Of a stretch of 64,000 nt of DNA, positions 1-13,753 are shown in pieces. The position numbers and the translations under genes were made by a program. Under the pieces are notes generated by a model. That model was not told the origin of the DNA. It saw only the letters and a program-made list of their open reading frames with translations, and ran no database searches. The stretch is from Savitreella phatthalungensis (lineage: Eukaryota): the NCBI GenBank assembly GCA_051599415.1, contig AP039714.1, positions 1 through 64,000 of the forward strand, written 5' to 3'. Within the stretch, counting starts at the first letter, position 1; each line of letters starts with the position of its first letter.

Positions 1-71
1 TATGTAACCTTCGTTCAGTTACGTATTGCTAAGGTTAAGACTACTTTCTGCCTTTGCGAGAACAGCACCCT
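1..71 (+). other. Oxford Nanopore ligation adapter + native barcode NB06 with flanks (sequencing artefact)
   Basis: 1-30 TATGTAACCTTCGTTCAGTTACGTATTGCT matches the adapter (AATGTACTTCGTTCAGTTACGTATTGCT) with read errors. 31-38 AAGGTTAA is the flank, 39-62 GACTACTTTCTGCCTTTGCGAGAA is NB06, and 63-71 CAGCACC(C)T is the second flank. Confidence 0.97.
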
Positions 72-170
72 ACCCTAACCCTAACCCTAACCCTAACCCT
101 AACCCTAACCCTAACCCTAACCCTAACCCTAACCCTAACCCTAACCCTAACCCTAACCCCAACCCTAACC
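72..170 (+). repeat. Telomere, (CCCTAA)n, i.e. TTAGGG type
   Basis: 14 perfect CCCTAA units (73-156), one CCCCAA variant and one more CCCTAA, C-strand at the contig start. Confidence 0.98.
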
Positions 171-537: not shown

Positions 538-780
538 TGTCACCTGCCACACGCTGGTACCTGCATGTCACCTGCCACACGCTGTTGCCTGCATGTCACC
601 TGTCACATGCTGTTACTTGCATGTCGCTTGTCAAATGCTGTTACCTGCACTGCCACCTGTCAAACATCTTTATCTTTACCTGCAACACATCTGTCAACCG
701 CCTTTACCTGCAACACATCTGTCAAATGCCATTACCTGCACCATCATCTGGCAAATGCTGTTGCCTGCACCGTCACCTGA
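538..780. repeat. Degenerate ~28-bp minisatellite, CpG-depleted
   Basis: Units such as TGTCACCTGCCACACGCTGGTACCTGCA at 538, 566, 594 and 622, with further decayed copies. Confidence 0.8.
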
Positions 781-1060
781 CCCACTGCCCTGCTCTGTGA
801 CCCAACATTTGTCAAACCCTTGATCTGCCAATTGCTGTTCACCTGTCATCTCCTGTTTTCTGTTTCTGTCACTCACTGTTGCCTGCACTGTACTCTGTTT
901 CATCACTTCACTGCCATCTGTCAAATGCTGTCATCTGTTAAACACTGCAACATCACTTGATACATCATTCCTGCACTGTCACTTGTTGTTTGAACACCTG
1001 GCCCCTGCCACTGACTCTGTCTCTGCTTGTTGACACATCACCTACTTGGCCCTGATCTCA
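720..1060 (+). repeat. Dispersed subtelomeric repeat, copy A (direct repeat of 5590-5935)
   Basis: Shares long blocks with 5590-5935, e.g. CCTTGATCTGCCAATTGCTGTTCA, CTCCTGTTTTCTGTTTCTGTCACTCACTGTTGCCTGCACTGTAC, AAATGCTGTCATCTGTTAAACACTGCAACATCACTTGATA and TTTGAACACCTGGCCCCTGCC. Confidence 0.9.
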
Positions 1061-1630: not shown

Positions 1631-1774
1631 ACCGGTGTAGCGCCTAACTGGCGCTCGCCTGATTGCAGGGCCAGTTGCAGGGCCGAAATTGCACCAGCCA
1701 CACGCTGCGCCACAGAACCGTGCGATTGTGTCGGCAACATCCTACAACCTTCAGAAGACAGGTTCTTGACGACT

Positions 1775-4690
1775 GCCTAGTACCACTACCTCCTAGTACT
1801 ACTACCTCCTAGTACTACTACCTCTTAGTACTACTACGGCCTGTTACTAGTGCCACCACCTAGTACCACTACAACCTACTGCTAGTACGACCTAGTAGGT
1901 GCGAAAAATGCTCGACTCGGCGACGACCTAGTACCACTACTGCCTAGTACTGCCACCTACCACCACAACCTAGTACTACCACCTAGTACTACTACGACCT
2001 AGTACTAGTACAACCTACTGCTAGTACGACCTAGTAGGTGCAAAAAATGATCGACTCGGCGACGACCTAGTACCACTACTGCCTAGTACTGCCACCTACC
2101 ACCACAACCTAGTACTACCTCCTAGTACTACTACAATCTAGTAGCACCTACTACTAGTACAATCTATTACTAGTATGACCTAGTAGGTGCGAAAAACGGA
2201 TCGACTCGGCGACGACCTAGCACCACCACCTAGTACTACCTAGCGCGACCTGGCACGGCCTATTACTAGTACCACCACCTGGCACCACGACAACCTACTA
2301 CTAGTACCACCACCTGCTAGTACGACCTGGCACTACCTAGCACCGACTGCGACCGAGGCCGACCTGGACCTGGTCACGTGACGGCACAAATCACGTGTGG
2401 GTGCCATTCAGGTCGACAAGCCAAATGGCACCTGCACGTGTGGGTGCCATTCAGGTCAACGAGCCAAATGGCACCCACACGTGTTTGACCTACTGCGACC
2501 TGGCACTACTACGACCTAGGACTACTACGACCTAGCACCACCACCTAGTACTACTACCAGCTACTACTACCAGCTACTACTACCACCTAGGACTAGCACC
2601 TAGTAGGTGCGAAAAACGGATCGACTCGGCGACGACCTGGCGCCACCACCTAGTACCACCTAGTGCGACCTGGCACGGCTTATTACTAGTACCACCACCT
2701 GACACCACTGTGACCTACTACTAGTACCACCACCTACTAGTACGACCTGGCACTGCAGAGTACTGCCACCTGGCACTACTACCTAGCACCGACTGCGACC
2801 GAGGCCGACCTGGACCTGGTCACGTGACGGCACAAATCACGTGTGGGTGCCATTCAGGTCAACGAGCCAAATGGCACCTGCACGTGTGGGTGCCATTCAG
2901 CTCATCGACCCAAATGGCACTTGCACGTGTTTGACCTAGTGCGACCTGGCACTACTACAACCTAGTACTACTACAATCTAGTACTACCTCCTGGTACTAC
3001 TACAACCTAGTACTACCTCCTAGTACTACTACAATCTAGTAGCACCTACTACTAGTACAATCTATTACTAGTATGACCTAGTAGGTGCGAAAAACGGATC
3101 GACTCGGCGACGACCTAGCACCACCACCTAGTACTACCTAGCGCGACCTGGCACGGCCTATTACTAGTACCACCACCTGGCACCACGACAACCTACTACT
3201 AGTACCACCACCTGCTAGTACGACCTGGCACTACCTAGCACCGACTGCGACCGAGGCCGACCTGGACCTGGTCACGTGACGGCACAAATCACGTGTGGGT
3301 GCCATTCAGGTCGACGAGCCAAATGGCACCTGCACGTGTGGGTGCCATTCAGGTCAACGAGCCAAATGGCACCCACACGTGTTTGACCTACTGCGACCTG
3401 GCACTACTACGACCTAGGACTACTACGACCTAGCACCACCACCTAGTACTACTACCAGCTACTACTACCAGCTACTACTACCACCTAGGACTAGCACCTA
3501 GTAGGTGCGAAAAACGGATCGACTCGGCGACGACCTGGCGCCACCACCTAGTACCACCTAGTGCGACCTGGCACGGCTTATTACTAGTACCACCACCTGA
3601 CACCACTGTGACCTACTACTAGTACCACCACCTACTAGTACGACCTGGCACTGCAGAGTACTGCCACCTGGCACTACTACCTAGCACCGACTGCGACCGA
3701 GGCCGACCTGGACCTGGTCACGTGACGGCACAAATCACGTGTGGGTGCCATTCAGGTCAACGAGCCAAATGGCACCTGCACGTGTGGGTGCCATTCAGCT
3801 CATCGACCCAAATGGCACTTGCACGTGTTTGACCTAGTGCGACCTGGCACTACTACAACCTAGTACTACTACAATCTAGTACTACCTCCTGGTACTACTA
3901 CAACCTAGTACTACCTCCTAGTACTACTACAATCTAGTAGCACCTACTACTAGTACAATCTATTACTAGTATGACCTAGTAGGTGCGAAAAACGGATCGA
4001 CTCGGCGACGACCTAGCACCACCACCTAGTACTACCTAGCGCGACCTGGCACGGCCTATTACTAGTACCACCACCTGGCACCACGACAACCTACTACTAG
4101 TACCACCACCTGCTAGTACGACCTGGCACTACCTAGCACCGACTGCGACCGAGGCCGACCTGGACCTGGTCACGTGACGGCACAAATCACGTGTGGGTGC
4201 CATTCAGGTCGACGAGCCAAATGGCACCTGCACGTGTGGGTGCCATTCAGGTCGACGAGCCAAATGGCACCTGCACGTGTGGGTGCCATTCAGGTCGACG
4301 AGCCAAATGGCACCCACACGTGTTTGACCTACTGCGACCTGGCACTACTACGACCTAGTACTACTACAATCTAGTACTACCTCCTAGTACTACTACAACC
4401 TAGTACTACTACCAGCTACTACTACAACCTACTACTAGTAATACCTAGTAGGTGCGAAAATAGATCGACTCGGCGACGACCTAGCACCACCACCTAGTAC
4501 TACCTAGCGCGACCTGGCACGGCCTATTACTAGTACCACCACCTGGCACCACGACAACCTACTACTAGTACCACCACCTGCTAGTGCCACCACCTGCTAG
4601 TACGACATGGTAGCACTGAGTACTGCCACCTGGCACCACCTAGAACGGCCTAGTACCACCACCTAGTACAACCTACTACAATCTAGTACA
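1775..4690. repeat. Subtelomeric higher-order tandem array (420+478 = 898-bp dimer) in a CTAGTACTAC matrix
   Basis: The marker AGGTGC(G/A)AAAA..GATCGACTCGGCGACGACC occurs at 1897, 2036, 2185, 2605, 3083, 3503, 3981 and 4450 (spacings 139, 149, 420, 478, 420, 478, 469). Each full monomer has GGTCACGTGACGG plus two (last: three) 43-bp hairpin units. Confidence 0.95.
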
Positions 4691-4725
4691 ACCATGTCAT
4701 TGTGCTCAAATGCCTTGTAGATCAT

Positions 4726-5350
4726 TGACAAACAGCGCCAATCTCAAATGGATGCACAGAACAAACGGCGCCAGGTCCTCACTAGGTGTTTGACAAACGG
4801 CGCCAATTTGGTGGTCAGCTGTTTGACAAACGGCGCCAATTTGGTGGTCAGCTGTCTGACAAACGGCGCCAATTTTATATGGATGCACAGGACAAACGGC
4901 GCCAGATCCTCACTAGGTGTTTGACAAACGGCGCCAATTTGGTGGTCAGCTGTTCGACAAACGGCGCCAATTTCAAATGGATGCACGACAAACGGCGCCA
5001 GGTCCTCGCTGGGTGTTTGACAAACGGCGCCAATTTGGTGGTCAGCTGTCTGACAAACGGCGCCAATTTCATATGGATGCACGACAAACGGCGCCAATTT
5101 GCTGGTCATGTGCCTGACAAACGGCGCCAATTTCAAATGGATGCACAGAACAAACGGCGCACAGGCAATCTATTTCCAAAAAACGGCGCCAATTTGCTGG
5201 TCAGGTGCCTGACAAACGGCGCCTCACATGACCAAAACTCGACAAACGGCGCCAAAATTGATATTTTTTGGAGATCAAATTATTCTTCTGAGGGCCTCCA
5301 GATAGGAGCAAATTTTGTCTTTCCGGCCCCGCTGACAAATGGCGCCAAAA
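4726..5350 (+). repeat. Phased array of the GACAAACGGCGCCA motif (31-33-bp period) with three recurring spacer types
   Basis: Motif starts near 4727, 4760, 4792, 4825, 4858, 4891, 4923, 4956, 4987, 5019, 5052, 5083, 5116, 5149 and beyond. Spacers are TTTGGTGGTCAGCTGT, TTTCAAATGGATGCAC and GTCCTCACTAGGTGTTT. Confidence 0.95.
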
Positions 5351-5358
5351 TGGCGTTG

Positions 5359-5586
5359 GATGCACGACAAACGGCGCCAAATTTTTGTGCATTGCGCCGT
5401 TTGTCAGGCGAAAAAATTGCCCCTATCTAAACCAGGTCAAACAAACGGGGTCAAACGCGAGGAATATATCTAGATGCACGACAAACGGCGCCAAATTTTT
5501 GTGCATTGCGCCGTTTGTCAGGCGAAAAAATTGCCCCTATCTAAACCAGGTCAAACAAACGGGGTCAAACGCGAGGAATATATCTA
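5359..5586 (+). repeat. 114-bp tandem duplication containing the inverted repeat GACAAACGGCGC...GCGCCGTTTGTC
   Basis: 5359-5472 and 5473-5586 read identically. Each has a 12-bp inverted repeat around a 16-nt spacer. Confidence 0.95.
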
Positions 5587-5589
5587 GTG

Positions 5590-5935
5590 TTATCTGCACT
5601 GTCACTTGTGTCATCATCTCTCAAATACCGTTACCTGCGCTACTACTTGCCTCATTGCCCTGCTCTGTGGCCTGGCATTTGTCCAAACCTTGATCTGCCA
5701 ATTGCTGTTCATCTGTTGACTCCTGTTTTCTGTTTCTGTCACTCACTGTTGCCTGCACTGTACTTTGTTCCATCACCATGCTGCAATTTGTAAAATGCTG
5801 TCATCTGTTAAACACTGCAACATCACTTGATATATCATTCCTGCACTGTTACTTGTCATTTGAACACCTGGCCCCTGCCGCTGACTCTGTCTCTGTTTGT
5901 CATAAATACCACCTGCTTGGCTCTGACTCTACCCA
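5590..5935 (+). repeat. Dispersed subtelomeric repeat, copy B
   Basis: Diverged direct repeat of ~720-1060. Confidence 0.9.
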
Positions 5936-5949
5936 CATGCATGCATAGC

Positions 5950-6790
5950 ATGTGTTCAGACAGACATAGCAATGATTTCATCACATATGAGGGGCTGACT
6001 TACAAGTCCGCGGTTTGGAAAACGATCAAGCAGAGCTTGCGCTATATGATTGTAGATTGCAATGTCGTCCTCCTCCTTCATCTGGTCCGGCGCTTGTCTC
6101 TGCGCCCTTGGCCATGCCTCGAAACCCACCACGGAGCAAGACCTGGAAATTGTATGTGACATTAGGCTCGTTCACCACTACAAAGCAATTTCTCACAGTG
6201 GAAGCGCTCGACAGTAAAGCAGAGTCGGCAACGAGAATTGTACCATGTCATTTGGTCACGTTTGCATCTTCCAACTTTCCCTCTCAATGGCGAGAACGAG
6301 TCTGCCACTCGCTGAAGCACAGCTTACTGATTAGAGATACGGGCTTGTTACCTTCATCTATCAGTACACAAGGAAGGAGCACTACAAGGTCACCCTTGAT
6401 GGCTTTCAATCTATTCTGGGCGACAGCACCCAAACAATTTCCGAAATAGGGAAGAAGGATTTTCAATGCAGCTGAATTGAACGACCAAGAGCCATTCAAA
6501 CTGAACCCAAGGTGAAGGTAACAGGGACGATTTGAGCCATGCACGACCATAAACTTCTTAAAGAGGAAGGAGATTTTCTAAGTTTTGACAGCTTCTCGAG
6601 CCTTCAGGACGGCAAGACGGAAAAGACACGCACTCCAGCGACACATGAATCACTATCATAGGTTATGCCGACTACAGCTGCCCCAGTTGTCTGCCGGACC
6701 AGAATGTCATCAAAGAGTTGGGACCATACGATTTTCCAAGGAGCCTTCCGACAACAATCGCGCCGCAGGCCGTTGCGCCCTTTTGACAAG
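5950..6790 (+). pseudogene. Possible decayed coding remnant, unidentified
   Basis: Protein-like + frames interrupted by TAG/TGA stops that could derive from CAG/CGA (MARTSLPLAEAQLTD*RYGLVTFIYQYTRKEHYKVTLDGFQSILG...). No family recognised. Confidence 0.25.
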
Positions 6791-6931
6791 ATTTATAGAT
6801 GACGCGCGCATTGCACTCGACATTCAGCTCACTCGCTGTTGTAGGCCACATTGACAGCCTTTCGCCGGCAAAAGGACTTGGCTGCAATTCCCCTCAATCA
6901 CTGCGCTGCCCCGAGAGGTCTGGTCTCTAGC

Positions 6932-8599
6932 ATGGTGTCGCTGCTACTTTTACTCCTCCCTTTTTGTGTGCTTAGCCACGCTGCAGACACAGCTGCGAGT
7001 CTCGCAGCCGCACAAGGTCGATGTAGTTCAGTGAAGGCCATCGTCTCAGCGCTTCCGACCACGGCTGCATCGTCGGCGTCGGCTTTCTGTAATGCGTTGC
7101 TCGGAGCAACAATACTTACAGCGCCTATCACAACGATCACTGTGCGAGGCACATGCGCATTGCCATTGCCATCAGATCTGTCGCTACGCACTCTCAGTAA
7201 GCGCGAGAAGCGAGGGTTCGTCCGCAGCGTCGCTGCTCCATGTCCGAGTTTCATGACTGCTCTGGGCACCAGCAGCATCTCGCAAGTCTGTGCGTGCTTA
7301 AAGTCAGCAGCGATCTCTACTTCAACATTCACCCCGACTGCAACAGTCACTAAATACAGTCCAGTGACAATAACGAGCACAAAGACTGTACAGGTTTCGG
7401 TTATCTCCAACCTGCCAATCCTGACATCGACGATTCAGGTGCGAGACGCTGCAAGCTACGTGACAAAGGTAATAACTGTCACAAGCATTGCGCCAACGAG
7501 TACAGTGACAATGACTGCTTCCAACGTTGTTTCGACTGTTCCTACCAGCACGCTCTCTGTCACCTCGACCGCAAGCTATCTCGTGCTTGAGTACACATCT
7601 TATTCGACCGAGACCTTGACCGGGACAAGTTACCTCATGATACCAATGCTGTCAACGAGATACATTTATTCCTGGGCAACGGTCACCGTACCAACAAGAA
7701 CGGTCTCCGTTGTTGCATCCATTGTGATTGACGGAAAAGCAGCTTTGTGCAAGCGAGACAAAGGTCTCACCCGCAGAGCCAGTCTGCCGGCTGCGAATCT
7801 CTGCCAGATTGTCACTGACACGGCTGTAATAACAGAGACTGTCACAATACCCTCTCAAAGCGTTCTTCAGCTCTACACTACGTCGACTCCAATGATAATT
7901 GCGAACGCTACAGTTACATTGACCTCGGTTCCAATCGTCAATTACACAAGCACACCTACCGTCACATCCACGCCCTACGTCACCACAACAATTGTCGAGA
8001 CCGTGACTACGACCCTCTATGATTCTGTCGGCCCTGAATCTGGCTCCTACGTGTCCACAAGCACGGCGGAGTATACAGTACTTGACGCCTATTCTGTTAC
8101 CCTATTAACCTCAACCAGCACCACTTACACATCAACCTCCACGAGCTATCTGCCTGTAGAGACAATCACTGTTGCAACAAAGACAGAATTTGTCACGATG
8201 CCAGAAGCGACGGCTACCGTGGCGCCGCAGCTTGAGATCCTCGTCGGAAATTCCAGGTTGCACGCGGGTCCAGGCACGAGCGGCGTTTATCTCAGCATTT
8301 GGAATGGAGTGCCCGATAATGTCACTTTCGTCTACAGCATTTCCAGTGATGGCATCATCAGCTCTTCAGCGGGCTCATTCATGCAACCTCCAAAGTCAGG
8401 GTATCCAATTTTCATGAAAACGGATACAGACAATCGGGCAAGATGTAAAATCGCCGTTGATGGCGTCACGCTGCACTGCGGAATGTTCATGAGGTTTGTA
8501 GAGGGCCACTTTGCCTGGGGCGGGTATCTTCCGTTTGCTTCTTATTATCGGGCTGTGCCAGACTTCAGACTTCAACCGGCCAATCGTGGATGCTTCTGA
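6932..8599 (+). CDS. Secreted Ser/Thr-rich adhesin/mucin-like protein (555 aa)
   Basis: ATG at 6932 gives the signal peptide MVSLLLLLLPFCVLSHA. It is followed by a Cys-containing N-domain, KR dibasic sites, a long Thr/Val/Ser stalk and a small C-terminal globular domain with no GPI tail. Confidence 0.8.
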   Translation: MVSLLLLLLPFCVLSHAADTAASLAAAQGRCSSVKAIVSALPTTAASSASAFCNALLGATILTAPITTITVRGTCALPLPSDLSLRTLSKREKRGFVRSVAAPCPSFMTALGTSSISQVCACLKSAAISTSTFTPTATVTKYSPVTITSTKTVQVSVISNLPILTSTIQVRDAASYVTKVITVTSIAPTSTVTMTASNVVSTVPTSTLSVTSTASYLVLEYTSYSTETLTGTSYLMIPMLSTRYIYSWATVTVPTRTVSVVASIVIDGKAALCKRDKGLTRRASLPAANLCQIVTDTAVITETVTIPSQSVLQLYTTSTPMIIANATVTLTSVPIVNYTSTPTVTSTPYVTTTIVETVTTTLYDSVGPESGSYVSTSTAEYTVLDAYSVTLLTSTSTTYTSTSTSYLPVETITVATKTEFVTMPEATATVAPQLEILVGNSRLHAGPGTSGVYLSIWNGVPDNVTFVYSISSDGIISSSAGSFMQPPKSGYPIFMKTDTDNRARCKIAVDGVTLHCGMFMRFVEGHFAWGGYLPFASYYRAVPDFRLQPANRGCF

Positions 8600-8817
8600 T
8601 CTACAGCCGATGTTTCAGTCAGTCGAATTCATCGCAAAGTACAGAGAACATACAAATAGAAAGCGAACATGTGACATGACTTTCAAATTTCTGTCATGAG
8701 AATTTACAGTGTGCAGGGTGCTGGCCCCATAGAATATTGCAATCTGTGCTACATGAAGCAAAGCACATCCTCGAATTGCTTGCACAGCTCTCCTCGCGAA
8801 CGTCAATCAGCTGATGC

Positions 8818-9167
8818 CGTTGTGGAGGACAGCCGCAGGACGCAAGAGCGATGGACGAACCGACACTGACACAAACCACAGGACACAGGAGGGATCACAC
8901 GGAACACCAGACAGCACCAATTGACACAAACATATACAAAATAACACACATAGTCACTCAAGAACTACGGGAGTCTGAGCCATTCAGTGGTCTCATCCAT
9001 GCACATACTATACATGATACAGACCACAACTCTGCTGACTGGGCTGATCGCTGCTGACGTGGCAAGCTGCACTTAGGTACAAGAAGACGCAGAATGCTGT
9101 ATACGAGAACAGTGTGCACGATATCACCCACATCAGGACCTAGCACAGCAATGCTATTTGGGCTACA
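8818..9167 (+). mobile_element. Solo-LTR-like repeat, copy 1 (decayed)
   Basis: Starts (C)GTTGTGGAGGACAGCCGCAGGAC and contains GCTGACGTGGCA, CATCAGGACCTAG and CTATTTG. Homologous to 10313-10600 and to the reverse complement of 10734-11056. Confidence 0.7.
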
Positions 9168-9169
9168 AT

Positions 9170-9720
9170 TTGGTAATACATAGACCGACTGATTGTGGAA
9201 TTGACGGCGTCGTGAACCAGATAGTACGATCGGCATGGACGACTTGAGCGGTTGTGACAACTGCGGCCACTACACATATTCCCTGATTTTTGCAACCCTC
9301 ACTTCCATTGCGCGTTTGTTCTGGAGCGTCATTGGACGTCCAACATTGATGATCACATATCCGATTTGAAAAGATCCTCACTTCGCTTTTTGTGCGTTCA
9401 TTTTCCTGCAATTGATGAGATCTTGAAATATGTCCGCTATTTTGCACTGCTTTCGTCAGGTTTGCAACTTGACAAGGTCTTGCATCTTCGCAAATGACTC
9501 GAAAGCCGAAAATCGCAGTGTCAATACGATGAACAATTCTGGGACAATCGTAATTAGAGGCTTGGCAGCAGGCCAGTTTTTCTTTAACGCCTGCCATTGG
9601 ATTGCCCTTCTGTGGGTTTGAATCACGTGTGCCGCAATCGTTTACATTATCGGGCAAGGGAAAGCGCAAAGTCAAGATATCCTGCTACGTGTTGTGGCAA
9701 GCAGCACATCAAAGTCACCA
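9170..9720 (-). pseudogene. Possible decayed coding remnant, unidentified
   Basis: The minus frame reads as protein-like text with in-frame stops (AIQWQALKKNWPAAKPLITIVPELFIVLTLRF...LQT*RKQCKIADIF...AK*GSFQIGYVIINVG...EYV*W). Confidence 0.2.
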
Positions 9721-10312
9721 ATCTATACAAATTTGATGCTGCTTTTGCAAATTTCTGACCAAGAATCAGATCACGAGCCGTGTAAAACGCCGATCAATCC
9801 AACTATATTGGTGAATATTTGGTTGAGAAGTGTAAGATTGTGCTTCATTGTGCCATTTGTGATCGCACAAGTCTGGTCTTCGTTGCTTACACTCAACAAT
9901 GCAGCACACATGTACATTTCCGTGTAATTTTAAGGCTCGCTTGACCGCCTGCTTGTCAAGCAAGTATTAATTTGTAAAAAATCGGTCTGCCCTCAGAAGA
10001 TTTAAAGCGGCCATCGCTGTATAATTGATGTGGACATCATTGTGAACTCCTGTTGTCGCGCCTTCATTGAAAGGTGAAACTGTTCGGACCAGAGCCCTCT
10101 GCGGCTATCCGATGCACAGTGGGCTGAAGCGAGCGACGTCTTCGTGAGACAGCTTGATGATCATCGCTGCTCTTACACTTGATCAATACCTTGTCATGGA
10201 CCTTCCGCTGGCCTCTCGCCCTGGTGCGAAGCTGCATGACGAGAAGCACGCCGTTTTGGTCTTCAGAATCGCCGAACAGTGCTATACAACCAGGCTGTGC
10301 CCGGCTCGCATC

Positions 10313-10600
10313 TGTTGCGGAGGACTCAAACGGAGCCCATCAAAGAACACAACCAGGCACAAACGCTTACAAACAAGTGTGAAGAGACACAGAAGGATTG
10401 CGAGAGGTTGAACTAGATAGTACTTGTATCTGTGATATACCTGACACCTGTCATGACTCTACTGACAAGGCTGGTTGCTGCTGACGTGGCAGATTGTATT
10501 TAGCTACAGGAAGACACAGCATGCTATATGGGAACTGCATGCAAGATATTACCTACATCAGGACCTAGTACAGAGCAATACTATTTGACAGCTCCACACA
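10313..10600 (+). mobile_element. Solo-LTR-like repeat, copy 2
   Basis: TGTTGCGGAGGAC...CTATTTGACAGCTCCACA(CA): TG...CA ends with an imperfect terminal inverted repeat. No target-site duplication seen. Confidence 0.75.
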
Positions 10601-10733
10601 AAGGATGTTGTCGCAACCGTCTGGTCGTCCAGGTCAATCGTATACGGTTCGTACACGACGCCGTCACTTCCGCAATCACTTGGTCTAGGTATTCCGCAAT
10701 CACTTGGTCCAGATATTACAAGATGGTAGCCCC

Positions 10734-11056
10734 GTATGGAGCTGTCAAATAGTATTGTTCTGTTCTAGATCCTGGTGTTGGTGATATCTGGCACGCCATC
10801 TCCAAACAGCGTGTTGCGTCCTCTTGTACTCCCCCTACCAACCTGCCACGTCAGCAGAGTTGTGGTATGTATCAGATATAGCATGGTCGGTGCCGCCGCC
10901 TAGGCCGTCTCTCGCAGTCCCTCCGTGTCTGTTTGTGCTCGTTCGTGTCTCTCCGTATCCCTCGGTGGAGTCCGTCTGTGTTCTCCTGTGTCGTCTGTCT
11001 CGTGTCCGTGTTGCTTCGTCCGTCGCTCTCGGGTCCTGCGGCCGTCCTCCGCAACA
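10734..11056 (-). mobile_element. Solo-LTR-like repeat, copy 3 (inverted, CpG-rich)
   Basis: The reverse complement reads TGTTGCGGAGGACGGCCGCAGGACCCGAGAGCGACGGACGAA...GCTGACGTGGCAG...CAATACTATTTGACAGCTCCATAC. Confidence 0.75.
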
Positions 11057-11734
11057 TTCGAGGGCTCTTGTGACGAATGTCTGCCGCTTTGCAATAGCTG
11101 TCGCTGTCCAGCCTGCGGATACACTAATTGTACACAGCGCTGTTACTCCCGCAACCACCCGATCCTACTTTCGACGAGATTGTAGCTCCGTAGTGAATTA
11201 ATGAAATACAGTAGATATTGGTTGCCACACGAGATGTCTTACACGTGACATGTCTCGATTTTGCGAACGTGGCAGATTGCGTGGCGAGGTGCAGGCATGA
11301 GAAGATGCAGCACGCTGTATACAGACGGCGTACAAGGTACAGGTATCACCAGTGCTTACAATAGCACAGCGAACAATACCTGTTCGACAGTGCGAGCATG
11401 GGATATAACCCTTTGTCACACATATCACTGAACGATTGCGGAAGTGATAGCGACGTGTACAATGGCGGACAACCTGATCAGCACGACTTACCCAGTCGCG
11501 ACAGTGACACTCCATTGTCCAAGCGTGTACAAAAATTGCTTGCGCCTGGAGCACCCGTGAATTTTGCGAAGGTCACACATCGAACTCTGAGCCAGATAGT
11601 CCGCCAATGCCACTCAATCGATCCTACCACAGCATCCAGAGCTACCTCGGATGCATACTTGCAAACCCGAAAACGTCCGATGCGGCGGGTTTCACACTAT
11701 ACAGTCATTGATTATCGTAAATGGACGGGTCACG

Positions 11735-13753
11735 CTAAGATTCAGTCGCCGGCACTCTCGGCTTGCCCTTCGACTCGAACATGACCATCTCGTGGAGGCC
11801 TTTTCCTGCTGGAACCATCGGGTAGCAGTGCTCCTTCGGCGTGACCATAGCTTCCAGAAGGACTGGCCCTTCATGAGCGAGGAACTCTGCCATGGCAGCC
11901 TTCAGGTCTGCCGTTTTCTCGACGCGGATGCCGCGAACGCCCATGGACTCTGCGAGCTTGACAAAGTCGGGATTCTTCTGGTGTGTGTGGGCATAGCGCT
12001 TCTCATAGAAGAGGGTCTGCCATTGTGTGACCATGCCCTGCTCCTCGTTGTTGAGGATAAGCCACTTGCAGCCGATGTTGTATTGCGCAGCGGTCTGCAT
12101 CTCCATAGCCGTCATGCTGAAGGAGGCATCGCCGTCGATATCAACGACAATGTGGTCTGGTTTGGCTACCTTTGCACCCACAGCAGCGGGCACGCCGTAG
12201 CCCATTGTGCCAAGACCTCCGGAAGAGATCCAGGTGCGCGGGTGGCGCCAGCGAAAGTACTGTGCGGCCGTCATTTGGTGCTGACCGACGCCTGTGCAGA
12301 TGATGACGCGGTCCTTCATGTGCGCCGTTTGGTCGGAGAGCTCTTCGATGACGTGCTGCGGCTTGCAGATCTCGTCGGGCTCAGCGGTGTCGTAGTTGAA
12401 GGGCAGACGGCGTTTCCAGCTGGCAATCTGGTCGAACCAGACGTTGCGGGCTGATCGCGGAACGGTTTCGACGAGAGGCAGAAGGGCTGCGAGGTTGTCG
12501 GCGACGTCGCCCTCGACGGCCTCGGTAGCCTGGACGACCTTGTTGATGTTCTTGGGCATGATCTCGAAGTGAACGATACCGCCACGTCCGTTCCGCGCTG
12601 CCTCCCTGGCAGCCGGGGCGAATTTTGCTAGGTTGCCCGTGACACGGTCGTCAAACCTGGCACCCAGGGCGAGAATGAGGTCGGCCTCCTGCATGGCGAG
12701 GTTGGCGAACGCGCTTCCGTGCATGCCGAGCATGTACAAAGCCTTCTCGTCCAGCTCGTCGAAGGCACCCAGTCCCTGGAGAGTCGTAGTCACAGGAATC
12801 TGGCACTTCTCGGCAAATTGTCGGAGGATCTCGGGGCCCTCTTCCTTGTGCAGCATGCCCTGTCCGACATAAAGAATCGGCTTTTTTGCCATGTCTACGA
12901 GCTTTGCGACGCGATCGAGCGAGGCATCGAGGACCTTACTGCCAACGGTAGGGTTTACAGCGTTGACGGCTCGGACGGGCGCTCTTGGGATAGCGGACGA
13001 GGTCGGGATTGCCTTGCGAAGGATGCCAGCAGTCACATCCTTCGGGAGATCGACGAGCACAGGCCCCGGCCGGCCAGAGGTAGCGATCTCAAATGCCTCA
13101 TTGATGCGACGCGGCAGCTCCGCAACATCCTTGACGAGAACATTCCACTTGGAACACGGGCGAGTAATGCCCACGACATCTGCTTCCTGGAAGGCGTCAG
13201 TGCCGATTGCGCTGGTCGGAACCTGTCCGGAGAAGACGACGAGAGGCGTGCCGTCCATGAGTGCATCCTGCATGGGGGTCACAACGTTCGTGGCACCTGG
13301 ACCGGAGGTGACAATCACGACTCCAGGCTTGCCCGAGGCGCGAGCGTACCCCTCGGCCATGTGTCCTGCGCCTTGCTCATGCCGGGGTAGGATGAACTCG
13401 AAGTGGGGTGAATTGTAGATAGCATCGAAGACAGGGAGGATAGCGCCACCCGGGTAGCCAAAAACGTGCTTGACACCCTGTCGCAGGAGCATCTCGTGGA
13501 AGATCTGGCCGCCTGACATTCCGATGAAGGAGTCATCCATGTCATTTGGCTTATTGCGCTTCAGCTGAGCAAGTGGAGAATTTTTCTGGGATGGTGCCGG
13601 GGTCGTGTTGAAGCTCGGTGCTGGGGTCGGACGAGCTTCTGCAGCAGCATCTTTCCTCGTCGTGCTCGAGATAGTACGATTCTTAGGCAGCGTCGCAAGA
13701 GTAGCGCGGCCCGATCGAATTGACCGCGCTAAACGCAGACTTCTCGAAAGCAT
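11735..13753 (-). CDS. ILV2: Acetolactate synthase catalytic subunit, mitochondrial
   Basis: FGYPGGAILPVFDA, RHEQGAGHMAEGYARASG, TSGPGATN and the ThDP motif GDASF...LNN. The ATG at 13753 gives the Arg-rich presequence MLSRSLRLARS. Confidence 0.97.
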   Translation of the reverse strand: MLSRSLRLARSIRSGRATLATLPKNRTISSTTRKDAAAEARPTPAPSFNTTPAPSQKNSPLAQLKRNKPNDMDDSFIGMSGGQIFHEMLLRQGVKHVFGYPGGAILPVFDAIYNSPHFEFILPRHEQGAGHMAEGYARASGKPGVVIVTSGPGATNVVTPMQDALMDGTPLVVFSGQVPTSAIGTDAFQEADVVGITRPCSKWNVLVKDVAELPRRINEAFEIATSGRPGPVLVDLPKDVTAGILRKAIPTSSAIPRAPVRAVNAVNPTVGSKVLDASLDRVAKLVDMAKKPILYVGQGMLHKEEGPEILRQFAEKCQIPVTTTLQGLGAFDELDEKALYMLGMHGSAFANLAMQEADLILALGARFDDRVTGNLAKFAPAAREAARNGRGGIVHFEIMPKNINKVVQATEAVEGDVADNLAALLPLVETVPRSARNVWFDQIASWKRRLPFNYDTAEPDEICKPQHVIEELSDQTAHMKDRVIICTGVGQHQMTAAQYFRWRHPRTWISSGGLGTMGYGVPAAVGAKVAKPDHIVVDIDGDASFSMTAMEMQTAAQYNIGCKWLILNNEEQGMVTQWQTLFYEKRYAHTHQKNPDFVKLAESMGVRGIRVEKTADLKAAMAEFLAHEGPVLLEAMVTPKEHCYPMVPAGKGLHEMVMFESKGKPRVPATES

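Follow-up and report, generated by a model that had tools for sequence, protein, structure and literature searches.

A core-bearing subtelomeric minisatellite at a chromosome end in the Taphrina/Protomyces lineage

Introduction

What holds a motif of 12-14 bp nearly constant through a tandem array in which the sequences between its copies differ from unit to unit? The question is raised by a locus close to the start of a 64-kb contig stretch, here called the window, that is, the whole stretch of DNA analysed. The yeasts of the Taphrina/Protomyces lineage, to which the host belongs, are plant-associated and related to fission yeast, and beyond the TTAGGG repeat no description of their chromosome ends was found in the literature searched. 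For Taphrina deformans, the accessible text of the genome report gives TTAGGG telomeres, a G+C content of ~50%, and a genome of ~13 Mb (PMC3648899).

A preliminary description of the locus noted a regularly spaced motif with several spacer types, and proposed that a sequence-specific protein binds it, as in transposon subterminal repeats, replication iterons, or arrays for telomere-associated factors. In the present study we describe the architecture of the array, the conservation of its core and spacers, its CpG pattern, its setting on the chromosome, and its other copies in public sequencing runs. The explanations that could account for these properties are then weighed against each other.

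Results

Architecture of the array

With one mismatch allowed, the 11-mer ACAAACGGCGC has 23 matches in the 64-kb window, compared to a mean of 1.22 and a maximum of 5 in 100 dinucleotide shuffles of the window, none of which reached 23. Nearly all of the matches (22/23) lie within 4728-5518, and their orientation is near-uniform, with 20 on the + strand and 2 on the - strand. The remaining match, at 12322 on the minus strand, is at chance level. Outside the array there is only 1 motif match in 58 kb, and there is therefore no sign of a factor that also works at gene promoters. When the + strand was searched with the 14-mer GACAAACGGCGCCA and up to three mismatches, 22 sites were found: 14 without any mismatch, 4 with one, 1 with two, and 3 with three. 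The imperfect copies are located at both array edges. This agrees with the near-invariant motif of the preliminary description, and so does the number of copies, since ~18 had been reported for 4726-5350 and 18 copies of GACAAACGGCGCCA were counted there. The array extends further, to 5587.

The array has a total length of ~860 bp and a G+C content of 52%. It is built of head-to-tail tandem units, 17 of which are regular and 29-33 bp long, and of a higher-order unit of 96-98 bp (Table 1). Each unit joins a core of 12-14 bp, (G)ACAAACGGCGCC(A), to a spacer of 15-19 bp. Between successive core starts, the first 16 distances are 33, 32, 33, 33, 33, 32, 33, 31, 32, 33, 31, 33, 33, 29, 33, and 30 bp, with a range of 29-33 bp and a mean of 32.1 bp. 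Most of them fit the 31-33-bp period stated at first, but 29 and 30 also occur, and the 3' side of the array is irregular, with periods of 29, 30, 93, and 74+40 bp. Along the units the spacer types run C A B B C A B C A B C B' C D B' E. The superperiod of ~97 bp that had been ascribed to A-B-C was recovered at 96-98 bp, with 93% matches over 4820-5096. Past the regular part, each of two 114-bp units carries an exact direct core (5366, 5480), an inverted core (5394-5404, 5508-5518), and a degenerate core (5440, 5554), and the inverted core can pair with the direct copy in a 12-bp stem.

Table 1. Features of the chromosome end, with positions in the window
Feature	Position	Strand	Remarks
Telomere repeat (CCCTAA)x17.5	67..170	.	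Period 6, 96% matches
Distal telomere-adjacent core sequence	742..1055	+	Matches 5612-5926 at 85% over 315 bp; preceded by 28-bp repeats (532-779)
446/452-bp satellite with 43-bp palindromic sub-repeats	1770..4700	+	Sub-repeats carry CACGTG and CAAATGGCACC
Regular part of the array	4727..5254	+	17 cores, 29-33-bp period; spacer types A, B, B', C, D, E
Best-kept A-B-C repeat	4820..5096	+	Tandem Repeats Finder: period 96, 2.9 copies, 93% matches; spacings 98, 96
79-bp non-repeat spacer	5255..5333	+	First 38 bp have 24% G+C
Lone core with CG>TG, GACAAATGGCGCCA	5334..5347	+	Canonical C at 5340 in all other contigs covering it
Two copies of a 114-bp unit	5359..5587	+	100% identity; one direct, one inverted, and one degenerate core per unit
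Proximal telomere-adjacent copy	5588..5926	+	Breakpoint at 5587/5588; elsewhere joined straight to the 28-bp repeats
First long ORF inward of the array	6932..8599	+	555 aa, Ser/Thr/Val-rich, hydrophobic N-terminus; on the motif strand, 1.35 kb inward of the array

The regular spacing had been taken to imply selection for binding on the same face of the helix. The mean period of 32.1 bp corresponds to 3.06 turns at 10.5 bp per turn, and given this value adjacent sites face roughly alike; over 16 units the phase slips by roughly a complete turn. Selection is not required for equal spacing, because tandem repeats inherit their period by descent. With a drifting phase and irregular 3' periods, same-face binding is possible but not indicated, and the earlier argument from spacing is not upheld.

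Conservation of the core and divergence of the spacers

Nine distinct unit types were compared. Core columns 2-12 are retained in 8-9 of the nine and the flanking columns in 3-6, and the edges of conservation around the ~14-bp core are sharp across all nine. Among the spacers, 14 of 15 pairs of types show the similarity of shuffled sequences (gapped alignment, p 0.068-0.95), B and B' being the only related pair; when these two are set aside, the lowest p in ungapped comparisons anchored at either end is 0.047. The core is thus much better preserved than the spacers, as the preliminary description had it. Descent of all spacers from one 33-bp ancestor with uniform divergence, which that description had named as the finding that would speak against its own view, is excluded because the spacer types are no closer to each other than to shuffles. 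The spacer types may even lack a common ancestor. If a per-site identity of even 55% is assumed, the probability that 14 sites are identical in three lineages is ~5e-8.

Recent copies of a single unit type give a different picture, as 4 of 56 columns vary in the core and 9 of 73 in the spacers (Fisher p 0.39). Since these copies show no significant contrast between core and spacer, the case for constraint is drawn wholly from the older divergence between types. As judged from the sequence, the core is constant between unit types while the spacers appear free to change.

Distribution of CpG dinucleotides

The core also holds almost all CpGs of the regular array (37 of the 38 in 4726-5258). In the spacers, 295 bp in all, there is a single CpG (o/e 0.07), a value based on ~105 bp of independent sequence, and this poverty may be an original state rather than the outcome of decay. 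For the array as a whole CpG o/e is 1.06, close to the 1.05 of the rest of the window, and it is 0.26 in 171-1055, 0.19 in 5588-5930, and 0.41 in 1056-1770. The contrast with neighbouring repeats that had been described before holds for these three regions, but not fully for the satellite immediately upstream of the array, in which depletion is just mild (0.76). Two edge copies of the core differ from it within the CpGs, by CG>CA at 4727 and by CG>TG at 5334, and decay at the edges thus follows the CpGs.

In the two telomere-adjacent copies (171-1055 and 5588-5930; CpG o/e 0.26 and 0.19), TpG+CpA o/e is ~2. Their CpG depletion could stem from local cytosine methylation or from a CTG-rich repeat make-up. 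No information on DNA methylation in Taphrinales was found in the literature.

Setting at the chromosome end

The start of the window is the physical end of a chromosome, as it opens with (CCCTAA)x17.5 at 67-170. Directly before this tract, bases 1-66 resemble what we take to be untrimmed nanopore ligation adapter with native-barcode flanks, which suggests assembly contamination and a read that began at the true DNA end. The distance from array to telomere is 4.6-5.5 kb. Of the analogies offered in the preliminary description, the one with telomere-associated arrays fits this position, and an association with a chromosome end was found.

From the end inward, the order is telomere, telomere-adjacent sequence, 446-bp satellite, array, second telomere-adjacent copy, and unique genes. 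The telomere-adjacent sequence at 171-1055 is CpG-poor and contains (CTTG)n and 28-bp repeats (532-779), and unique CTG-rich DNA fills 1056-1770. On its centromere side, a 4.8-kb non-coding block ends with the array; the block is flanked on both sides by telomere-adjacent copies, and no convincing ORF was found in it.

The 43-bp sub-repeats of the satellite are located at 2389-2486, 2835-2932, 3287-3384, 3733-3830, and 4185-4325, each with CACGTG. They contain CAAATGGCACC nine times on the + strand, a sequence that differs from the core by a transition in each of its two CpGs. The possibility that the 43-bp repeat is a decayed array unit was considered and not adopted: local alignments were non-significant, with 36-249 of 300 shuffles scoring equally, and the resemblance remains a hint.

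Copies in public sequencing runs

Other genomic copies were traced in contigs of public sequencing runs. X1 and X2 are two runs of one sample, and of all runs X1 represents the window DNA best. X3 and X5, the latter a phyllosphere metagenome, are large mixed data sets, which show presence elsewhere and not conservation across species. Several distinct contigs with sequence differences cover the same array positions, indicating diverged copies of the array. The window has T at position 5340, where all other contigs (7 in X1, 2 in X2, and 1 in X5) have the canonical C; the CG>TG change in GACAAATGGCGCCA is thus private to the window. Summed depths, which are sums over contigs and not copy numbers and which disagree between the two runs of one sample, reach 3765 in 4801-5200 and 1118 in 5201-5600 of X1, versus 90.9 in unique DNA at 6001-10400 (12-41x), and in X2 only 18 in 4801-5200 versus 67.1 in unique DNA, although the bins on either side reach 257-298.

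In each of X1, X2, and X3 there is one contig in which only seven foreign letters separate position 779 from 5587. The telomere-adjacent sequence thus also exists without the 4.8-kb block, which points to two classes of chromosome end. Given this block-less joint and the flanking direct repeats, the block appears to be an add-on module on some ends only. In X5, contigs span 5316-5587 at 5-9% difference and continue into telomere-adjacent sequence. As they cross the end of the array, the junction of array and flank is also present in a leaf-dwelling relative. Taken together, the array is best read as a subtelomeric minisatellite with higher-order structure, of which the genome holds several diverged copies.

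Outside these runs no related array was found in JGI metagenomes, prokaryote genomes, viral contigs, or predicted proteins. Pairs of the 14-mer had 0 matches in prokaryote genomes and 0 in viral contigs, and the predicted-protein searches with a 214-aa ORF that runs through the array gave 0 matches among proteins of similar length and 0 among shorter ones. In JGI metagenomes, 11 loci with two cores 16-22 bp apart were retrieved. Core matches, spacing, and G+C were counted in all 11; most have other periods, the 3 sequences inspected have unlike spacers, and these loci were judged unrelated.

Genes and repeats inward of the array

The first long ORF inward of the array matches no Pfam family and is covered by single flat-depth contigs in both X1 and X2. 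From its composition and its N-terminus, the hydrophobicity of which was judged by eye, the product may be a wall or secreted protein. Scaffold ends of Taphrina have been reported to hold clusters of secreted-protein genes, and some subtelomeric genes to encode secreted candidate effectors, in the accessible text of PMC4007546. Further inward the genes are fungal and nearly intron-free. The acetolactate synthase has its best named match in Protomyces lactucae-debilis (82% identity), followed by Neolecta and Saitoella, with other database proteins at 83-87%. These matches place the host in the Taphrina/Protomyces lineage, and TTAGGG telomeres, a G+C content of ~50%, and the 12.7 Mb of contigs in X1 agree with the published values for T. 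deformans.

The region 8800-11500 contains a foldback, MITE-like dispersed repeat that lacks the array motif. Its arms (10505-10599 and 10734-10828) show 79% complementarity, and it recurs in part at 9004-9217 and 11246-11463. Contig joints are many in this region, and summed depth rises to 2544 in X1 and 24025 in X2. At 11027-12000, a 3.1-kb contig of X2 covers the 3' side of the acetolactate synthase gene at a depth of 2683, versus 67 in neighbouring unique DNA; the same region is single-copy in X1 (depth 52).

Discussion

The contrast between a stable core and dissimilar spacers inclines us, by a slight preference, to regard the core as the docking site of one sequence-specific DNA-binding protein, of which the array would load ~20 copies. 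Each core would dock one protein molecule, and this would be the reason that the spacers change while the core stays. The proteins would be loaded head to tail at the border between the subtelomeric repeat block and the first gene, 1.35 kb away. Of the likely roles of such an array, that of a chromatin boundary or nucleation site would come first, followed by that of a CpG island acting like the promoter of a subtelomeric transcript. A polar replication-fork barrier would come third, a role to which, by analogy, the single orientation would be suited. The parallel with promoters of the telomeric transcript TERRA is attractive because the intact CpGs sit inside a CpG-poor end.

A more detailed version of this proposal is put forward tentatively, as a possibility short of probable. 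It holds that a dedicated, new subtelomere-binding protein of Taphrinomycotina would dock at the core, that docking would protect the two core CpGs against decay at a chromosome end where CpGs have otherwise eroded, and that the array would mark a Y'-like module on some ends, acting as a boundary or a TERRA-type promoter by the first, secreted-protein-like gene. Given the AAACGG and CGG within the core, possible readers are proteins of the Myb type, zinc-cluster proteins, and domesticated hAT transposases.

The most serious competitor, which we nevertheless regard as rather unlikely, is a neutral or selfish minisatellite. The core would then be kept by driving turnover of the array and not through any use by the cell, perhaps as a start point of recombination or gene conversion like the 'core' common to human hypervariable minisatellites, or three unrelated core-ended segments would have been joined and amplified as a 97-bp unit. 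The array is indeed dynamic, as its higher-order copies are 93% identical and the 114-bp unit is present twice at 100% identity, and the recent divergence is equal in core and spacer (p 0.39). The block also resembles recombining subtelomeric modules in having flanking direct repeats and in being absent from another genomic form. However, neutral turnover leaves unexplained why both core CpGs survive amid CpG-poor spacers and flanks, and why the 14-bp conservation has sharp edges across 9 unit types, and a recombination signal would itself require a protein that reads the core. Transposon descent is less probable still, and we consider it improbable that the array is a relic or expansion of hAT/Ac-type subterminal repeats, in which a region bound by transposase has grown into a satellite and the reader is an active or domesticated transposase. 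The maize Ac transposase binds AAACGG cooperatively within the subterminal 200 bp, according to the accessible text of PMC3260210. The same hexamer occupies core positions 4-9, direct and inverted cores are intermixed in the 114-bp units, and the foldback MITE-like repeats at 8.8-11.5 kb show that the genome carries repeats resembling DNA elements. A shared 6-mer is nevertheless weak evidence, and the array measures 860 bp as against ~200 bp in Ac. Inverted pairs in 4600-5700 consist of core versus core only, with no terminal inverted repeat at either edge. The window has one cluster with 2 inverted copies interleaved and no second, oppositely oriented cluster, and no transposase-like ORF occurs in 1-11.7 kb, and Pfam gave no match in the ORFs tested. 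With no terminal inverted repeats at the array and no transposase in 1-11.7 kb, the early comparison with transposon subterminal repeats is not supported.

The comparison with replication iterons fares worse, and an origin at which initiator-binding repeats lie beside an easily melted AT-rich patch seems very improbable here. A 38-bp patch with 24% G+C does follow directly after the last regular unit, and the subtelomeric X and Y' elements of budding yeast carry origins. The array itself, however, has 52% G+C, and iteron-type origins are known from plasmids and viruses rather than from the chromosomes of fungi. With no initiator gene nearby, this part of the preliminary description found no support. 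A coding repeat or a structured RNA can scarcely be entertained. An ORF of 214 aa is open over 4786-5430, but the 31- and 32-bp periods shift the frame, the core is translated as DKRRQ or as TNGAN depending on the unit, and the ORF has neither a Pfam family nor a similar protein in two database searches. The fold z-score of the array as RNA (-2.46) could be taken to favour a structured transcript; folding is unremarkable, both at this value and for the 114-bp unit as DNA (z -1.97). The array has no Rfam match at E<=1. In 1-12 kb, the same threshold gave weak miRNA-like hairpin matches in the 43-bp palindromes only, and a tRNA search returned 0 tRNAs.

A core-bearing subtelomeric minisatellite is a known sort of chromosome-end feature, here met in the Taphrina/Protomyces lineage. 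No such motif is mentioned in the accessible text of the Taphrina genome papers (PMC3648899, PMC4007546) or in Text S1 of PMC3648899, and no description of the array was found in the literature on Taphrina/Protomyces subtelomeres and telomeres. When published text was searched for the 10-mer AAACGGCGCC, the titles among the matches listed were unrelated and none describes the array. The ~20 near-identical sites offer a ready probe for isolating a subtelomere-specific DNA-binding protein, and the array would give access to the insulation or silencing of subtelomeric genes in this lineage. The intact core CpGs, set against CpG-poor surroundings, raise the question of subtelomere methylation in the lineage.

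Short boxes kept in diverging tandem units that have a higher-order arrangement are familiar from the CENP-B box in alpha satellite, the human minisatellite core, and the pairing-centre motifs of C. elegans. The likeness to these is one of logic only, as loci, lineages, and readers differ. The Y' and X elements of budding yeast are comparable in form, being few-kb add-ons on some ends that are bounded by repeated telomere-adjacent sequence. They have factor-binding sites at the module border, and Y' encodes a helicase and carries an origin. Unlike Y', the 4.8-kb block is without a convincing ORF. Ac/Ds elements share with the array the AAACGG hexamer in many closely spaced copies (accessible text of PMC3260210). 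In contrast to their termini, the array is regular, four times longer, and placed at a chromosome end, and it has no inverted termini, second inverted cluster, or transposase.

In the human genome, 61-29-37 repeats form CpG-island TERRA promoters on ~twenty subtelomeres, and the 29-bp unit has two sites for the methylation-sensitive factor NRF1, as given in the accessible text of PMC6600276. Both systems have tandem units of ~30 bp and a CpG-bearing island in the subtelomere, which in human is found on a subset of ends. The human island, unlike the array, is closer to the telomere and G+C-rich throughout, whereas here the CpGs are confined to the core. In Plasmodium falciparum, SPE2 motifs form sense-oriented arrays, each locus having ~11 motifs that precede the first subtelomeric gene by ~2.2 kb. 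TARE2/3 contains another cluster, with ~18 per end, and PfSIP2 binds the motifs within heterochromatin; position and orientation of SPE2 are conserved (accessible text of PMC2829057 for all of these statements). The SPE2 motif is unrelated to ours, its spacings are 12 or 120 bp in the available account, and its binding was established by ChIP, whereas binding at the present array is proposed from the sequence. The ApiAP2 family of readers, to which PfSIP2 belongs, is not known from fungi. What the array has in common with the SPE2/PfSIP2 system, as far as the available account goes, is a short motif in sense-oriented tandem copies, placed in the non-coding subtelomere a couple of kb before the first gene.
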